Positions 21,864-27,944 of a stretch of DNA of 64,000 nt are shown one piece after another. A program made the translations under genes and the position numbers. Position 1 is the first letter of the stretch. Every line of letters starts with the position of its first letter. Source of the DNA: Candidatus Latescibacterota bacterium (GTDB lineage: Bacteria; Latescibacterota; UBA2968; UBA8231); assembly GCA_965206595.1 (NCBI GenBank), contig OZ242214.1, positions 5,760,001 to 5,824,000 of the forward strand. The letters run 5' to 3'. Below the pieces are notes generated by a model that was not told the DNA's origin, searched no databases, and saw only the letters and a program-made list of their open reading frames with translations.

Positions 21864-22532
21864 CTAATCGCCGGTAATGGGCGGATGGTCGACCTCCAGG
21901 CTGCCGGCGCCGGTAGTATCGGGTACGTCCCCCTCGTCGTGCCAAGCGGCGCGAATCCGCTCCAGTTCCAGCCCCTGCTCTGCTGTCAGCATGGCCTCGA
22001 AAGCCATGCGGTGCTCCTCCAGCAGGCCGCCCGGGTCCACGAGACCGGATGCCTCCGCCGCGGCGTAGCGGGCGCGCTGCCGCTCCAGAAGATCGAGCCA
22101 GCGGCGCTGCTGCTGCTCCGTGAGCTCCAGGGCGTCGGCAAGGTAACCGGGTTTCAGCCCGCCGGGTGGAGCGGGGATCATGCGTTCCTCGATGAACTCG
22201 CGGGCTCGCGCCAAAAACAGGCGCTGGTCCTCCGACAGAATCCGGTCGCGCTCCGCGGTGTGCGCGCGCAGGGCACGGCGAAATCGCTCCCGCCCCTCTC
22301 CGGGCGTCAGCATCCCTTCCTCGACCTGCCGTCTCACGGACTTCACTTCCCACTCCAGGGCAGCGCGCAGATCCCGCAGGCTGACTTCCTGGTTCTTCGT
22401 CAGGTTGAGCGCCTTCCGCACCCGCTGGCGGAAACGCTCCGGGTCGAATCGCTCCCCGCCCTCCTCTCCAAGTTGTGGAAGGGACGGCGCGGAAACGGCG
22501 AACACCAGAAATGCAATCAGTACGCGTGTCAT
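21864..22532 (-). CDS. Secreted helical protein with Spy/CpxP-like LTxxQ repeats
   Basis: Signal peptide; LNLTKNQ, ILSEDQ, LELTEQQ and MLTAEQ. Confidence 0.7.
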   Translation of the reverse strand: MTRVLIAFLVFAVSAPSLPQLGEEGGERFDPERFRQRVRKALNLTKNQEVSLRDLRAALEWEVKSVRRQVEEGMLTPGEGRERFRRALRAHTAERDRILSEDQRLFLARAREFIEERMIPAPPGGLKPGYLADALELTEQQQRRWLDLLERQRARYAAAEASGLVDPGGLLEEHRMAFEAMLTAEQGLELERIRAAWHDEGDVPDTTGAGSLEVDHPPITGD

Positions 22533-22699
22533 TCTCCCGAGCCTGGATCGTCTCTATGCAGCAGGCCGCCCTTCCGCCCCGAGTCGGTCCGTCCGGCCGC
22601 CGGACCGTTCATGGCGGTACCGTCGATGAATATAGGCAGGAGAGGGAGAACTTGAACGAGTTCCTGCGAGCACTGAAATTCTGGCACCAGGTTTCCCTT

Positions 22700-24367
22700 A
22701 TGACTGAACACCTTCCCGCGCTGGCGCGCCTCTGTTTTCGCGTTCCCCCAGAGCGCATGTCCGAGTTCGAGAGCGCCTTCGAGAGCAGGCTGCTGCCGCG
22801 ACTGCAGGACCGCGGTCTCACCCCGGCAGCCGACCTCGGCCGCCCCACGGTTCCCGGGGTCTTTCACCGGCTGTTCCCCCTCGAGGAGACAGGGCAGATA
22901 ACACGGGTCAGCGTCGATCTTGAGGCGGACGCGGACTGGGCGGCGGCGCTCGATGAAATCGGGGGAGATCTCGGCGCGACGATTTCCTGCACCTTCCACA
23001 GCTATCTCGCCGCCGGCGTTCAGGGGCGCCGCGTCGATGTCGACGAATCGACCGAGGGCCGCTGGACGACCTACACCACCGCCAACCTCGTTTCCGGCGA
23101 CCTCGTCACCTGCATTCTGCGCGACAGCCGGCAGCGGTTCTGGTTTACGACCGCCCACGCCGGCACCACCATGTTCGACGGTAACCAGTGGCACGACTTC
23201 GGACCGGAGACTGGACTGCCTGTCGACCGCTGCTGGGCGCTGTTCGAAGGTAGCGAGGGAGAGATCTGGTTCGGCTCTCACCGCAGCGGGGTAACCCGGT
23301 TCGACGGCGACAGCTGGATGTCGTTCAGGCAGGAAGACGGCTTGCCCAGCAACAGCGTGATTTCCGGATACCAGGACGGACAGGGGAGGCTCTGGTTCGG
23401 ATCGGACGTGTCGGAAGCGGGAGAGGGACTCGCCTGCCTGAACGGGGATTCCTGGACCCTCGTAACCGTCGCCGACGGCCTTGCCGACAATCGCGTCAAG
23501 TGGATCACCCAGGACCGCGACAACCGCCACTGGGTCGGGACCGCCGGAGGGGTTTCGGTTTACGACGGATCGGGGTGGCAGACCTACGACACCGGGGACG
23601 GGCTCCCCGGAAACTGGGTCGAAACGATTCTGCAGGATCGCGAAGGAGATATGTGGGTCGCCACGGACCGCGGCCTCGCCCATTTCGACGGCGTCGAGTG
23701 GACGGGGTACACGGCCCAGGACGGGCTCCCCGGGAGCTGGGTGACCGCGGCCTTTCAGGACAGCCGCGACATTCTCTGGTTCGGAACCTTGAACGCCGGC
23801 GTCTGCTGTTTCGACGGGGAGACCTTCCAGACGCTTAATCACGAAGATGGCCTTTCCGGGGATGCTGTCTGGTGGATCTACGAGGACGAGACGGGGGACC
23901 TCTGGTTCGCGACCGACGGCGGGGTGTCGCGCTATCGCCCGCCGGAGCCGGATCCTCCGGCGGTGAAACTGAATGCGGTTACCGCCGACAGGCGCTACGA
24001 GCAGTTCGACGACCTGGTTCTTCCGGCGTCGGCCGACCTCGTCGCCTTCGAGTTCGACGGGGAGAGCCCGCACACCCGTCACAGCGGCCTGGTGTACCGG
24101 CACCGGCTCGTCGGCTGCGACGACGAGTGGCGCACCACGTACCGGCGCCGCGCCGAATACAGCTATATAGAGCCGGGCACCTACAAATTCCAGGTGCAGG
24201 TTGTAGACCAACTCCTCGACTACTCTCCCATCCTCGAGACCGAGTTCACAGTGCAGGACCCGCAGGGAGACCGCATCGGCGAACTCGAAGAAAGCGTAGA
24301 CGAGCTGTCGCGCCGGCTCGAGGAGGCGAACCGCAGGCTGCGGGACGCCGGTCTTCACCAAGCATAA
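22700..24367 (+). CDS. Two-component-regulator propeller repeat protein with Y_Y_Y domain and terminal coiled coil; no kinase
   Basis: Repeated DGLPxNxVxxIxQDxxGxxWxGT units; YRHRLVG...YSYIEPGTYKFQVQ; start reassigned to MTEHL. Confidence 0.85.
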   Translation: MTEHLPALARLCFRVPPERMSEFESAFESRLLPRLQDRGLTPAADLGRPTVPGVFHRLFPLEETGQITRVSVDLEADADWAAALDEIGGDLGATISCTFHSYLAAGVQGRRVDVDESTEGRWTTYTTANLVSGDLVTCILRDSRQRFWFTTAHAGTTMFDGNQWHDFGPETGLPVDRCWALFEGSEGEIWFGSHRSGVTRFDGDSWMSFRQEDGLPSNSVISGYQDGQGRLWFGSDVSEAGEGLACLNGDSWTLVTVADGLADNRVKWITQDRDNRHWVGTAGGVSVYDGSGWQTYDTGDGLPGNWVETILQDREGDMWVATDRGLAHFDGVEWTGYTAQDGLPGSWVTAAFQDSRDILWFGTLNAGVCCFDGETFQTLNHEDGLSGDAVWWIYEDETGDLWFATDGGVSRYRPPEPDPPAVKLNAVTADRRYEQFDDLVLPASADLVAFEFDGESPHTRHSGLVYRHRLVGCDDEWRTTYRRRAEYSYIEPGTYKFQVQVVDQLLDYSPILETEFTVQDPQGDRIGELEESVDELSRRLEEANRRLRDAGLHQA

Positions 24368-24400
24368 AAAAACCGGGCGCGCCGCTGCGACGCGCCCGGG
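24365..24400 (-). terminator. Rho-independent terminator on the minus strand
   Basis: Minus strand reads CCGGGCGCG-tcgcagcgg-CGCGCCCGG-TTTTTTT. Confidence 0.8.
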
Positions 24401-24661
24401 ATACCTCGGTAACCGGCGGGTAAGGCCGGTTCCGTCCAGGTGATCGACCACCTGGTGAATCCGAAGGTCAGGTGGTCGACCTCCTTAAGGGTATTCTACT
24501 ACTCACAGACCACCTCCTTTCTATTCGGCTCCGGGCCCTCGGCGCTTACCGGTGCCTTGAACCCGTGCTCGTTCATTTAGGCCGGCGCAGCGCTATCGGT
24601 TTTGAACAACCGGCCATTTGGCGAGATGCCAGAAACGGAAACGGCCTTCGTTTCCGTTGCC
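24365..24661 (-). ncRNA. Candidate structured small RNA (~295 nt) carrying a 12-codon ORF
   Basis: Bounded by a sigma70-like promoter and a terminator; about 6 hairpins; two strong SD motifs; no long ORF. Confidence 0.55.
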
Positions 24662-24667
24662 TTTCCA

Positions 24668-24697
24668 AATATAAACAGGGCGAAAAAACAGAGTCAA
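24668..24697 (-). promoter_or_regulatory. Sigma70-like promoter
   Basis: Minus strand TTGACT-N18-TATATT in an AT-rich patch. Confidence 0.65.
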
Positions 24698-24757
24698 CAG
24701 CTTTTTTGGCCCCCCGTCCCAGTGCCGCAATTCTCGCAACTCCAAGTCCTGCAATCG

Positions 24758-25648
24758 CTACTGGTTCAGCGAATCCATTGTTGTCGAGAGCCCGAGGGCG
24801 AGCTGCCGGCCAGCGGGGAAGTTCCTTCCCCCCAGACTCTGACGCACCGCCAGCTCGAGGAGCGCGTTCCCGGGAAGCGAAAAGGAAAGCGCCGGCGCCA
24901 GGTAGGTGATGCGCTTGATCTGCGTCCTGCTGGGAAAGCCGAAGTCCGTCCCCGTCCGGCCGCGCAGCATCTGCAGCTTGAGGGCAAGCCCGACCCTGTC
25001 CCCGACGTCTCCTCCCGCTTCGAGGTCGATCATCCACTCGTCCCCCGGGTCGCGGAGGATCTCCTCGTTTTCGGTGCGCACCCGATAGCCGACATCGGCG
25101 TTGGCGTACAGCGGCAGCGGCCAGAAGGAACGGCCGGCCTGCAGGGTGAAGTCGAAGTCCCACTGGCCTTCGCCCACCGGTATCAGGCCGTCCTCGTTGC
25201 GGAACTCCCCCGTCGGCATCTTCACCGCCGTCTTCACAGTGAAGACCGCGGGGGTTTGGAACGCCCGCCACTTCGCCAGCAGGCGCAGGTCGCTGAAGCC
25301 GCTGTCTCCCACCGGGTCGAGGTGGGTGGCGTCGTCGAACTGCTGGTCGAACCAAGGCACCTGAAAGCCGAGGTCGAGACGGTCGCTGGCGCCGAAAAAT
25401 CCCTCGGCGAACACCGCCATCGAGTCGTACTCCCCGTTGAAGCGATAGGGCCGCCGGCTCCCGGCCTCGTGCATCCGGCCCGTGAACTCCTGGGCGTTGA
25501 TGTACCATTCCCGGGCGTGCTGACGGAACCAGGTGATCTTGCCCCAGGCGCTGCCGGCGGGAAGGGTCCAGGCGCCGGCGCCGGCCGCGTCGGGAACGAG
25601 AATTTCCGCGACGGCGAACAAGGTCACTGCCCACTGCTTCCTATACAT
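24758..25648 (-). CDS. Putative outer-membrane beta-barrel (MetA-pathway-of-phenol-degradation/transporter-like)
   Basis: Signal peptide, AGAWTLPAG, GFSDLRLLAKW, KMPTG, alternating beta-strand pattern. Confidence 0.7.
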   Translation of the reverse strand: MYRKQWAVTLFAVAEILVPDAAGAGAWTLPAGSAWGKITWFRQHAREWYINAQEFTGRMHEAGSRRPYRFNGEYDSMAVFAEGFFGASDRLDLGFQVPWFDQQFDDATHLDPVGDSGFSDLRLLAKWRAFQTPAVFTVKTAVKMPTGEFRNEDGLIPVGEGQWDFDFTLQAGRSFWPLPLYANADVGYRVRTENEEILRDPGDEWMIDLEAGGDVGDRVGLALKLQMLRGRTGTDFGFPSRTQIKRITYLAPALSFSLPGNALLELAVRQSLGGRNFPAGRQLALGLSTTMDSLNQ

Positions 25649-25830
25649 GGATCCGCGACCTTTCCTGGTTTCGATTCTGCGACCCAAGCCCCACTGGAAA
25701 AAGCGGATTCGCCAATGCGTCATCGAGGCCTTTCCGCGGCCGGCGCCCGTGCCAAATTGCCCGACCTCGCAGGCACAGCGACTTTTTGATTGCGGACGCC
25801 GCACCCGGGAAACAACATACCTCCTTTGCC

Positions 25831-27129
25831 ATGCACCTGCTGACCCTCGGACTGAACCACGAAACCGCCCCTGTGGAGACGCGCGAGCAGCTCGCTTTTT
25901 CCCCGGCCGCCCAGACCGAGGTGATGCAGCGCCTCGTAGGCGACTACGGCATCGAGGAGGCCGCGGTGCTGTGCACCTGCAACCGCTCCGAGATTTACGC
26001 GGTCAGCGGCGACCTCCACGGCCTCGACGGGGTGCGCCGGTACCTGTCGAGCGAGCACGACGTCGACCTCAGAGAGCTCTCCCCCTGTCTCTACGAGTTC
26101 GCCGACGCCGATGCCGCCATGCACCTGTTCCGGGTCGCCTGCGGCATCGACTCCCTGGTCACCGGGGAGTCGCAGATCCTCGGACAGGTGCGCGAGGCCC
26201 TGGAGCGGGCGCAGCAGACGCGCACGGCGCGGCGGTTCATCAACGAGGTGTTCCAGCGTGCCCTGAGGGCGGGGAAGCGGGCGCGGAGCGAAACCGACAT
26301 CGGGCGCGGCCGCCTGTCGGTCAGCAGCGCCGCGGTCGAGCTCGCGGGGCAGATCTTCGACCGCCTCGAGGGCCGTTCGGCGCTGCTCCTCGGGGCCGGC
26401 GAGATGATCGAGCTCACCGCCCGCTACCTCGTCAACAGCGGCATCGAGCGCTTCCTGGTCGCCAACAGGACCTTCGAACGGGCACGGGAGCTGGCGCGTC
26501 GCTTCGGCGGCGAGGCGGTGCCGTTCACCGACTTCGGCGAGCGCCTCGAGCAGGTCGACATCGTCATAACCTCGACCGCGGCTCCCGGTTTCGTCATCTC
26601 GCCGGAGATGATCGACGAGGCGATGCACCGCCGGCGCGGGCGGCCGCTGTTCCTGATCGACATCGCCGTGCCGCGCGACGTCGACCCGGCCGTGCGCGAC
26701 GTCGACAACCTCTTTCTGTTCGACATCGACGACCTCGAGGAGGTCGTCAGGGCCAACCGCCGTGAGCGCGAGCAGGAGATCTGCCAGGTGCAGGAGGTCA
26801 TCGACAGCGAGCACCGCGAGTTTGTGCACTGGCTCAACGCCCTGGAAACCGGCCCCCTGGTCAAGTCGCTGCGGCGCCACGCCGACGACCTGCGCCGCCA
26901 GGAGCTCGACCGCTGGATGGCCAAGCTTTCCCACCTTTCCGACGAGGACCGCGAAACCGTGGAGGCGGCCATGCGCGGTTACGCCAACAAGCTGCTTCAT
27001 CACCCCCTGGTGGAGATCCGCAACCTCGCCGGCGAGGAGGACGGGTACGTCCGTCTCGAGACCGTGCGGCGCCTGTTTGGGCTCGACCGCATAGGGGAGG
27101 AGGACCCCGGCGGAGGGAAGGACCCGTGA
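25831..27129 (+). CDS. hemA: Glutamyl-tRNA reductase
   Basis: GLNHETAPVETRE, LCTCNRSEIY, GESQILGQV, GAGEM, DIAVPRDV. Confidence 0.96.
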   Translation: MHLLTLGLNHETAPVETREQLAFSPAAQTEVMQRLVGDYGIEEAAVLCTCNRSEIYAVSGDLHGLDGVRRYLSSEHDVDLRELSPCLYEFADADAAMHLFRVACGIDSLVTGESQILGQVREALERAQQTRTARRFINEVFQRALRAGKRARSETDIGRGRLSVSSAAVELAGQIFDRLEGRSALLLGAGEMIELTARYLVNSGIERFLVANRTFERARELARRFGGEAVPFTDFGERLEQVDIVITSTAAPGFVISPEMIDEAMHRRRGRPLFLIDIAVPRDVDPAVRDVDNLFLFDIDDLEEVVRANRREREQEICQVQEVIDSEHREFVHWLNALETGPLVKSLRRHADDLRRQELDRWMAKLSHLSDEDRETVEAAMRGYANKLLHHPLVEIRNLAGEEDGYVRLETVRRLFGLDRIGEEDPGGGKDP

Positions 27130-27944
27130 CCGCGGCCTGCCTCCTTTTTCTCGGGGTGTCGCTCTGTTGTTATCTGGCCGCGGCCTTCCTGTATCACGTC
27201 CGGCTGTTCTTCAACAAGCCGCACCTGGACCGCTGGGGGCGAAATGGGTTGCTGTTGGGGGTGGCCGTCCACGCCGTGGGGGTGATCCTCCACCTGCTCC
27301 TGTCGGGACAGCCCCCCTTTTCCAGCATGCTGCTGCTGGTCTCGCTGCTGATTATCCCTTTCGTGGGAGCCGGCCTCGCCATCGAGGAGTTCACGCGCGT
27401 TCGCCACCTTGGCCTGCTGCTGGCGCCGCTGGCCTTTCTCGGCCTGCTCTACCCGCTGCTGATGCCTGTGCAATTCGACGAGGCCGAGTCGATGCTCCTG
27501 CGCTTCCCCTGGCTCGGCGTGCACGTCCTCGTCACCCTGCTGGGGGACGCCGGCTTCGCGCTCGCCTTCTGCACCGCGGCGTCCTACCTCATCCAGTCCC
27601 GGCAGTTGAAGAGGGGCCGCCTCAATCGCTATCTGCCGGCCCTGGACACCGCAGGACGGATCACCGACTACGCGGTGGGATACGGCTTCTTCCTGTTTTC
27701 GGCAGGGCTCGCGATGGGCTTGGTCTGGCTGCTCGGGGCGCCGGGGGAATTCCTCGGGCGGGGGGACCCGAAGGTCCTGATGGCCGTGCCGACCTGGCTC
27801 GCGTACGCCGCCTACCTGTACCTGCGCGGCGTCCGCGGCGAGTACGGGAGCCGCCTGAAGTGGCTGGTGATCGCCGGGTTTCTGTTCGTCGTCGCCAATC
27901 TGCTCGGCGTGCGCCACGACTTCGCGGTGAACGCGGCTCTCTAA
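27126..27944 (+). CDS. ccsA: Cytochrome c assembly protein, CcsA/HemX family membrane protein
   Basis: Multi-TM; WLGVHV, YLIQSRQLKRG, LPALDT, DPKVL; overlaps the hemA stop. Confidence 0.8.
   Translation: MTAACLLFLGVSLCCYLAAAFLYHVRLFFNKPHLDRWGRNGLLLGVAVHAVGVILHLLLSGQPPFSSMLLLVSLLIIPFVGAGLAIEEFTRVRHLGLLLAPLAFLGLLYPLLMPVQFDEAESMLLRFPWLGVHVLVTLLGDAGFALAFCTAASYLIQSRQLKRGRLNRYLPALDTAGRITDYAVGYGFFLFSAGLAMGLVWLLGAPGEFLGRGDPKVLMAVPTWLAYAAYLYLRGVRGEYGSRLKWLVIAGFLFVVANLLGVRHDFAVNAAL

Follow-up and report, generated by a model that had tools for sequence, protein, structure and literature searches.

What is the purpose of an RNA that displays a long complement to the 3′ end of 16S ribosomal RNA, carries a reading frame of only twelve codons, and is followed by no gene on its own strand? 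This question is raised by a locus of a Candidatus Latescibacterota bacterium (assembly GCA_965206595.1, contig OZ242214.1, positions 5,760,001 to 5,824,000; this stretch of 64,000 nucleotides (nt) is called the window, and positions are counted from its first letter). An annotation made from the letters alone, hereafter the original prediction, had noted on the minus strand at 24366-24697 a self-contained structured RNA with a promoter, several hairpins, two Shine-Dalgarno (SD) motifs (here SD1 and SD2), a short open reading frame (ORF) and a U7 terminator. It proposed an undescribed small RNA (sRNA) or dual-function RNA, perhaps a sponge for ribosomes or for GGA-binding proteins, or the mRNA of a micropeptide. 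All of these elements are indeed located there (Table 1). The analysis described below indicates with high confidence that the locus is a real, stand-alone and conserved RNA gene, and leads us to favor, by a modest degree, the ribosome as its partner.

The case for an independent gene begins with its boundaries. The promoter is of the sigma-70 type, agrees with the consensus at 10 of 12 positions, and is the sole promoter-like site between 23800 and 25300 (shuffled sequences gave 0.1). A 301-nt stretch folds at -136.5 kcal/mol versus -111.2 +/- 5.4 kcal/mol for shuffled versions (z = -4.7; 0 of 100 shuffles as stable), and the fold predicted for it branches repeatedly, with the 5′ hairpin and the terminator hairpin as separate elements. 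The RNA is single-copy in its genome and sits between two convergent genes. As the original prediction held, no gene comes after it on the minus strand, because the downstream gene, which encodes Reg_prop and Y_Y_Y domains (Pfam), is convergent. The next gene is convergent in 7 of the 16 genomes examined, this one included, and the co-directional downstream genes belong to unrelated families (TIM-barrel, epimerase, DapF, or no Pfam match). The downstream genes being convergent or of unrelated families, we regard the RNA as a free-standing gene and not as the leader of a particular one.

Relatives of the RNA are widespread. A DNA search recovered the 3′ half (~165 nt) in 19 of 41 related genomes and the 5′ half only within the genus. 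Scanning one genome of each prokaryote species for an exact pattern gave 26 stretches, labeled Candidatus Latescibacterota (16), Gemmatimonadota or similar (8), Planctomycetota (1) and ‘uncultured bacterium’ (1). A covariance model of the 3′ domain built from the RNA's own family, termed R1, matches 69 of 76 genomes of that family, including all 12 of high quality and members of 17 of 18 genera, nearly always in one copy. A sigma-70-like promoter with a TTGAC-type box lies 120-227 nt upstream of the core in all 26 distinct full-length homologues, whose RNAs are ~250-350 nt long, and the terminator stem covaries (one pair, for example, is G-C in 11 sequences and A-U in 7). The discrete, structured RNA that had been predicted is confirmed in its promoter, terminator and fold, and it is conserved in relatives. 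It is a near-universal single-copy marker of this Latescibacterota family.

Known RNA families do not account for the locus. At gathering scores, Rfam 15 yields no match anywhere in the window, and searches of 24200-24900 at E<=10 give only sub-threshold chance matches; 20 homologous loci searched at gathering score contain only an unrelated tRNA. The exclusion of the common housekeeping RNAs also holds. Neither ARAGORN nor Rfam detects transfer-messenger RNA (tmRNA) in the window, and the tmRNA of this genome resides elsewhere (188.5 bits), as do its RNase P RNA and signal recognition particle RNA (304.2 and 70 bits), both likewise lacking in the window. The 6S RNA model RF00013 finds no match in the genome or the region, a result tempered by the low sensitivity of this model, which matches only 5 of 14 controls. 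Literature searches on noncoding or small RNAs of Latescibacteria or Latescibacterota returned no relevant report, and those on anti-SD or ribosome sponges returned only eukaryotic, synthetic or unrelated cases and no bacterial RNA of this kind.

One feature that points to the ribosome is SD1. Its 14-nt core, GAAAGGAGGUGGUC, which begins with GAAAGGAGG, is invariant in all 37 distinct sequences of the RNA's own family and can form 13 Watson-Crick pairs plus one G-U pair with the 3′ tail of the genome's own 16S rRNA, GAUCACCUCCUUUC. Of the 13-mer TAGAAAGGAGGTG the 7.05-Mb single-contig genome has two copies, one lying in the 16S gene and the other in the window RNA, and the core is the longest complement to the 16S tail in that genome. 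The possibility that the match is a plus-strand fragment of a 16S gene was rejected, as Rfam detects no rRNA in the window and the match spans only ~13 nt. SD sites are in ordinary use by this organism. They precede 47% of 269 unambiguous ATG starts, compared with 12% at a control position, with a peak at -12 to -10; an earlier estimate, in which the control scored as high as the test, was discarded in favor of this stricter design. The GGAG of SD1 begins at -11 relative to the start codon, which is the genome's usual SD distance.

The arrangement of the mini-ORF is conserved too. Homologues were examined as two sets, 51 distinct sequences (distant ones included) for the module as a whole and 37 of the RNA's own family for the core, the other frames and the helices. 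All 51 retain GAAAGGAGG, a short ORF, and a stop codon buried in a helix with compensatory changes. The ORF has 9-13 codons (identified by script in 49 sequences and by eye in two, L090 and L086, as 10-codon ATG ORFs) and exactly 12 in 37 of the 51. It starts with UUG, GUG or AUG and ends with UGA, UAA or UAG, always at the same structural place, and the two other frames are interrupted by stop codons over this stretch in 36 and 28 of 37 sequences, respectively. SD1 sits 6-7 nt before a start codon that is weak by the standards of this genome: 38 of 39 family-type ORFs use GUG or UUG, whereas ATG makes up 70% (409/585) of SD-supported starts. The ORF in the window is also built largely from the genome's rarest codons (AGU, 3.6% of Ser; AGA, 2.4% of Arg; AUA, 6.2% of Ile; UUA, 0.3% of Leu).

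The nucleotide motifs and the fixed geometry of SD, mini-ORF and SD2 are conserved; the peptide is not. Codons 8-9 read RR, GG or GR as the internal GGAGG changes frame, residues 4-10 vary freely, and distant relatives encode unrelated peptides (MKETTTWRATA, MTAILWRCRV, MSEMTSGGGCR). An N-terminal MSS is kept in most family members, with Ser codon switches from AGU to AGC and, in L076, from AGU to UCA. As originally noted, SD2 has no start codon after it. What is conserved instead is its distance to the stop codon, such that from the end of the second GGAGG to the last sense codon there are 6 nt in 33 homologues and 7 nt in 12 (45 of 51). This spacing is that of an initiation complex, but it would apply here with a stop codon in the A site.

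The SD motifs are also embedded in competing helices. Segments a (AGGUGGUC, the 3′ part of SD1) and c (CAGGUGGUC) are purine-rich, as is SD2; segments b (GACCACCU, ending in the stop codon) and d (CACCUGG) are complements of a, c and SD2. Across the 37 family sequences, 414 of 444 cells are paired for b:c, 293 of 296 for a:b, 279 of 296 for c:d and 220 of 222 for a:d. Helix b:c carries true compensatory changes at four positions (for example, C-G 17, U-A 10, U-G 4), and the other three helices show compatible changes only. RNAalifold favors the nested fold a:d + b:c. Constrained folding of the RNA from this genome gives -29.5 kcal/mol for a:b + c:d and -29.3 kcal/mol for a:d + b:c, and the two constrained folds differ across the 37 sequences by -2.5 kcal/mol on average (range -7.8 to +4.8). 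The unconstrained optimum, at -34.0 kcal/mol, is a third fold in which SD2 and b together pair with c and d together, leaving SD1 freer. Because three SD-like segments share two partners, one of them is always left unpaired. Mean unpaired probabilities, calculated for 23 full-length RNAs, are 0.08 for segment b and 0.31 for SD2. Nearly isoenergetic SD/anti-SD helices are a natural design for a bistable switch. The two SDs, the short ORF and the mutually exclusive helices of the original prediction are thus all present and conserved in relatives. A proposed pairing of the 5′ domain with the ORF interior was dropped after inspection by eye, since its registers are inconsistent between genomes.

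The 5′ domain differs in character from this core. It varies strongly in sequence and size among homologues, yet is structured. Nearly all of the 26 full-length homologues are predicted to start with a 5′-proximal hairpin of unrelated sequence, and in an 11-sequence clade 36 pairs are predicted for the domain, 12 of them with compensatory changes.

How might these parts work together? In the model we propose, SD1 would offer 13-14 contiguous pairs to the 16S tail ahead of a weak GUG or UUG start, and ribosomes would bind and translate the RNA. SD2 would then pair anew with the 16S tail at the stage when the P site holds the last sense codon and the A site the stop codon. Three purine-rich segments (a, SD2 and c) would compete for two CACCU-type segments (b and d); nearly isoenergetic alternative folds are possible as a consequence of this competition, and the choice between them would fall to a ribosome that binds or translates the RNA. 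The RNA could hold ribosomes or 30S subunits, or could report ribosome availability by a change of fold, with the 5′ domain possibly tuning the response. We lean toward the view that the ribosome is the partner and that the RNA works through being bound or translated and not through its peptide, on the basis of the SD, the start codon, the rare codons, SD2 and the helices. The more specific proposal, that the RNA is a ribosome-docking or ribosome-sensing switch combining a super-SD with a mini-ORF, is offered tentatively, with confidence somewhat short of even. Of the ideas in the original prediction, the ribosome sponge would be the most attractive reading of the sequence. A cis leader, a CsrA sponge and a micropeptide mRNA are poorly supported.

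A known element with a comparable docking site is STAB-SD of the Bacillus thuringiensis cry3A leader, which lies in the 5′ untranslated region of the mRNA that it stabilizes and has no ORF of its own; similar SD stabilizers, likewise lacking a start codon, belong with it. What they have in common with the window RNA is a perfect 16S-tail complement of the GAAAGGAGG type, which serves no normal gene and provides, in the window RNA putatively, a dock for 30S subunits. The window RNA differs in that its start codon, ORF, second SD and dedicated terminator are all conserved.

Contigs from RNA libraries are the basis for stating that the 296-nt gene is abundantly expressed. Two runs of sponge metatranscriptomes contain contigs of a close relative, 154 and 157 nt long with k-mer depths of 678 and 710, which cover 24497-24644 with 7 mismatches and end inside the RNA without any flanking gene; contigs of other relatives at 7-12x cover the conserved core. 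Two further observations, that the window flanks have no contig cover in the two high-depth runs and that runs X16 and X18 yield only low-depth or partial pieces, were not used as evidence.

Several points weigh against a ribosome-directed switch. The contigs report presence in RNA libraries only, and not strand, ends or level relative to mRNAs; moreover, a single study supplied both high-depth runs, and DNA can be present in an RNA library. Ribosome binding and translation are predicted from the letters of the RNA and its relatives. The three in-frame indels all fall in AGU repeats, where slippage by 3 nt is expected mechanically. True covariation is limited to b:c and the terminator, and a:b and a:d lack it because segment a is invariant. 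SD1 appears only partly free in the predicted ensembles, with mean unpaired probabilities of 0.64 for its GAAAG, 0.42 for GGAGG and 0.22 for UGGUC. The mature 3′ end of the 16S rRNA in this organism is presumed; the Rfam 16S model ends at ...CCUCCUUU. In the ‘type 2’ paralogues described below, SD1 is only 9-10 nt long, so the long complement may serve intramolecular pairing rather than pairing with 16S rRNA. The role of the 5′ domain is unassigned in the proposed mechanism. Finally, what the RNA achieves may be sequestration of ribosomes, a readout of ribosome availability through refolding, or regulation of its own action on other targets.

Among the alternatives, the one that survives best is a trans-acting base-pairing sRNA, whose segments b and d, or other loops, would pair with the SD regions of mRNAs while the SD-like segments mask these seeds and the mini-ORF only sets when they are exposed. 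Possession of its own promoter and terminator suits such an RNA, as do competing folds that expose different segments. Segment b is, in many homologues, the 16S tail sequence GAUCACCU, and potential targets are frequent, with 84 genome copies of the 10-mer representing the GGAGGTGATC-type extended SD. We nevertheless consider this explanation unlikely: in the predicted ensembles segment b is hardly ever free, the CCUCC core is missing from both b and d, a search of the single-contig genome for Hfq detected no gene, and the conserved frame, stop codon and SD2 spacing are left unexplained.

A decoy for an RNA-binding protein, such as a ribosomal protein, an initiation factor or a GGA- or purine-rich binder, would account for invariant purine-rich motifs in a near-universal, single-copy RNA that reaches high depth in RNA libraries. 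Such a sponge has no need of a conserved start codon, frame and stop, and the RNA departs from CsrB and RsmZ in having only two conserved GGA-containing motifs. CsrA (PF02599) was not found in the 7.05-Mb genome, nor was Hfq, and a sponge for GGA-binding proteins, contemplated in the original prediction, is unlikely in the case of CsrA because this protein partner was not found. Even for other proteins, we judge a decoy improbable.

Next in rank is a cis-acting leader in which translation of the leader peptide would control terminator read-through into a downstream gene. In the erm and trp leader-peptide attenuators, the position of the ribosome on a short ORF selects among overlapping helices. 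The window RNA has a similar layout, with an SD, a short ORF whose translation is predicted, mutually exclusive helices that could pair as 1:2 and 3:4 or as 2:3, a fold that ribosome position would pick, and then a terminator. Some relatives have a co-directional downstream gene, and in one of them (G016, locus L010) a 525-aa ORF replaces the 3′ half. However, there is no regulated downstream gene, as in 7 of 16 genomes the next gene is oriented toward the RNA and elsewhere its family varies, and the RNA is near-universal whatever its neighbors. The terminator is a separate, constitutive-looking hairpin 37 nt beyond c:d, not an alternative helix, and c:d itself lacks a U-tract; the ORF covers segment b rather than the first segment. 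Attenuation is accordingly a quite improbable explanation. Least probable of all is that the RNA encodes a functional micropeptide of 12 residues behind a long, structured 5′ untranslated region, for although the ORF, its start and stop and, in most family members, MSS with some Ser codon switches are kept, the central residues interchange as GGAGG moves between frames and distant peptides are unrelated, so that it is the nucleotide motifs that are conserved.

The L010 form deserves separate mention. At L010:3992-4191 the promoter, 5′ domain, SD1, mini-ORF and segment b are kept, and the beginning of the 525-aa ORF, which has no Pfam match, stands in place of c, d, P4 and the terminator. This form looks like a natural conversion of the RNA into an upstream ORF.

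Is the RNA entirely without known kin? The description as an undescribed sRNA holds in that no Rfam family matches the window RNA itself, and needs amendment in that the RNA appears to be a distant relative of RF02471, with which it shares the 14-mer and the ORF start. RF02471, or Ms_IGR-5, is listed by Rfam as an sRNA of Actinobacteria of unknown function. Published passages describe Ms_IGR-5 as a ‘validated but yet uncharacterized’ sRNA that is NAD-capped in Mycobacterium smegmatis and cite Li et al. 2013 for its first report (bioRxiv 10.1101/2021.12.14.472595; PMC10454040).

The RF02471 model does not match the window RNA at E<=10 within 24200-24900, and so does not reach its gathering score of 45 bits; in the whole genome it gives only two unrelated sub-threshold matches elsewhere. 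It likewise matches none of 63 genomes of the RNA's own family at E<=0.01. In two sister families, f2 and f4, the model finds a single locus in each of 29 out of 30 and 18 out of 19 genomes, respectively, at scores of 23-46.6 bits, of which one exceeds the gathering score; it finds nothing in 14 control genomes. R1 in turn gives weak matches in the sister families, at loci with GAAAGGAGG, an AUG-started 9-12-codon ORF, an internal GGAGG and a terminator, the stop codon lying at a hairpin of quite different sequence. At locus L093 the two models meet (RF02471, 39.5 bits, E = 4e-6; R1, 26.1 bits), providing a transitive link.

The shared core is specific. The f2 and f4 RNAs begin ACAC(A/G)(A)GAAAGGAGGUGGUC(G/A)AAUGAG(U/C), and thus have in common with the window family the identical 14-mer, the position of the start and a second codon AGY. 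Their second SD is framed GGA-GGU, as it is in one clade of the window family. The RF02471 consensus itself begins ACACAaGGAAGGAgGugGuC, followed by a short ORF-like stretch with GUGAGGUG, and its helices overlap the region just after the second SD. The architecture in common is therefore an extended SD, a short ORF, an internal SD-like motif and helices over the ORF end. The window RNA differs from the Ms_IGR-5-like RNAs in its added 5′ domain of ~140 nt, in its GUG or UUG rather than AUG start, and in its different 3′ half (the b:c hairpin, d and P4).

The two forms replace each other across families, as R1 matches 57 of 63 own-family genomes in which RF02471 matches none, and RF02471 matches 29 of 30 in f2. 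This pattern fits a diverged ortholog, though the genomic neighborhood is not shared: in tblastn, six proteins encoded in the window, HemA among them, had no match in the 12 kb surrounding each of eight f2 and f4 loci. Among 36 genomes drawn from ten other families of the phylum, neither model has a match. We conclude that the window RNA is probably a divergent, 5′-extended relative of the Ms_IGR-5 type, and not a member by the Rfam threshold. The proposed homology to the actinobacterial RNA would follow from a near-threshold match in sister families and the shared core, the actinobacterial side being represented in the comparison by the RF02471 model.

Downstream of the mini-ORF, the f2 and f4 loci L113-L120 contain exclusive pairings of their own (GGUGCGC:GCGCACC or GCCAGG:CCUGGC), and a GGCUGUC just after SD2 pairs with a distant GACAGCC, which echoes the competition among a, b, c and d.

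A further group of super-SD mini-ORF RNAs of ~210-255 nt, termed type 2, was observed at L081-L091 (for example, L088:916-1154:+, L081:1003-1220:- and L086:999-1253:-). Families f3 and f4 have such RNAs, and some own-family genomes carry one as a second copy; all begin with GTGCATCC, which may be part of the RNA rather than a promoter because a complementary GATGC occurs further on in most of them. In four own-family genomes the second copy follows immediately after the 3′ end of an ORF whose sequence includes a sigma-70-region-4-like helix-turn-helix. This ORF is seen in full in L088 (123 aa, 534-905), and a similar ORF end is found just upstream in G028 (f3). Genomes of f4 carry Ms_IGR-5-like RNAs (L115, L116, L119, L120) and type 2 RNAs (L081-L085) at separate loci; hence the module has been duplicated and diversified within the class.

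A weaker likeness extends to Caulobacter sRNA CC2171 (RF01867), the consensus of which has GAAAGGAGGUGAUCC near its 5′ end. The RF01867 model gives 17.4 bits at 24374-24496 (minus strand) in the window and 23.9 bits at L086:1050-1122 (minus strand). These scores are far below the gathering score of 75 and the alignment is driven by the SD and terminator-like stems, and we therefore do not assign the RNA to that family. Nevertheless, the CC2171 consensus suggests that a small RNA of a third phylum may display a full complement of the 16S tail.

A broader reading can be entertained, in which the Ms_IGR-5 type is an ancient, cross-phylum ribosome-docking RNA that buffers or reports free ribosomes as a kind of ‘6S RNA for the ribosome’. 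With its super-SD and weak start codon, the RNA would retain one ribosome at the start, and SD2 would park another at the stop codon. The RNA would then be a counterpart to hibernation factors, with the lineage-specific 5′ domain serving as a sensor that opens the docking site. 6S RNA acts on RNA polymerase, and RMF is a hibernation factor protein for the anti-SD region. The analogy is functional only, in that an abundant, housekeeping-like factor would occupy the active surface of a core machine; the window RNA has no sequence or fold likeness to 6S RNA, and a rod-with-bubble structure is not predicted. We regard this broader reading as speculative and rather unlikely.

Coordinates of the RNA's features and of the neighboring genes are collected in Table 1.

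Table 1. Features of the window RNA and flanking genes (window positions)
Feature	Position	Strand	Sequence or basis
-35 box	24692..24697	-	TTGACT; promoter search
-10 box	24668..24673	-	TATATT, 18-nt spacer; kept in homologues as TAtATT / TACATT
Predicted transcript, ~296 nt	24366..24661	-	5′ end inferred from -10 box, 3′ end from terminator U-tract
5′-terminal hairpin	24634..24658	-	AACGGAAACG / CGTTTCCGTT; fold prediction
Variable structured 5′ domain	24522..24661	-	82-239 nt in relatives
SD1	24521-24511	-	GAAAGGAGGTG; seen in sequence
SD1 + segment a (14-mer)	24508..24521	-	GAAAGGAGGUGGUC; complementary to 16S 3′ tail
Mini-ORF, 12 codons	24468..24506	-	GUG 24506 to UGA 24468, MSSRIPLRRSTT; reading frame
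SD2, inside mini-ORF	24479..24487	-	TAAGGAGGT (UAAGGAGGU in RNA letters); GGAGG ends 6 nt before last sense codon
11-bp helix (segments b:c)	24479-24469 with 24454-24444	-	TCGACCACCTG with CAGGTGGTCGA
Segment b	24469..24479	-	UCGACCACCUG; includes U and G of stop codon; pairs with a or c
Segment c	24444..24454	-	CAGGUGGUCGA; pairs with b or d
Segment d	24436..24443	-	UCACCUGG; pairs with c, a or SD2
Hairpin P4	24411..24431	-	AACCGGC / GCCGGUU; variable, deleted in some relatives
Intrinsic terminator	24366..24399	-	12-bp stem (11 G-C) 24399-24373, U7 tract 24372-24366
Downstream gene	22475-24367	+	Reg_prop and Y_Y_Y domains (Pfam)
348-aa ORF	24758-25804	-	no Pfam match
hemA	25786-27129	+	glutamyl-tRNA reductase (Pfam)
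ORF	27126-27944	+	

Hairpin P4 is missing in L044, L046, L072 and L076. Upstream on the same strand as the RNA, the 348-aa ORF separates it from hemA, which the ORF at 27126 adjoins. In several genera the RNA is usually 1.3-3 kb from a divergent ORF of hemA-like size and position, identified by Pfam only in this window. In some assemblies the RNA is found on very short contigs near the contig end (G003:C94, 2.3 kb; G021:C27, 2.1 kb; G007:C127, 1.7 kb; G005:C174). Assemblies of fragmented metagenome-assembled genomes appear to break near the RNA, possibly because its core is common to co-occurring relatives.

The window RNA is absent from current annotation, and its recognition extends to a second phylum a family that Rfam lists as actinobacterial. 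Since Mycobacterium smegmatis and Streptomyces carry the Ms_IGR-5 family, the function of the shared core is testable in tractable hosts. In this way, a question raised in an uncultured phylum associated with sponges and sediments gains an experimental entry via Ms_IGR-5. If ribosomes do dock on these RNAs, then they would represent natural bacterial RNAs that act on the translation machinery itself, rather than on single mRNAs.

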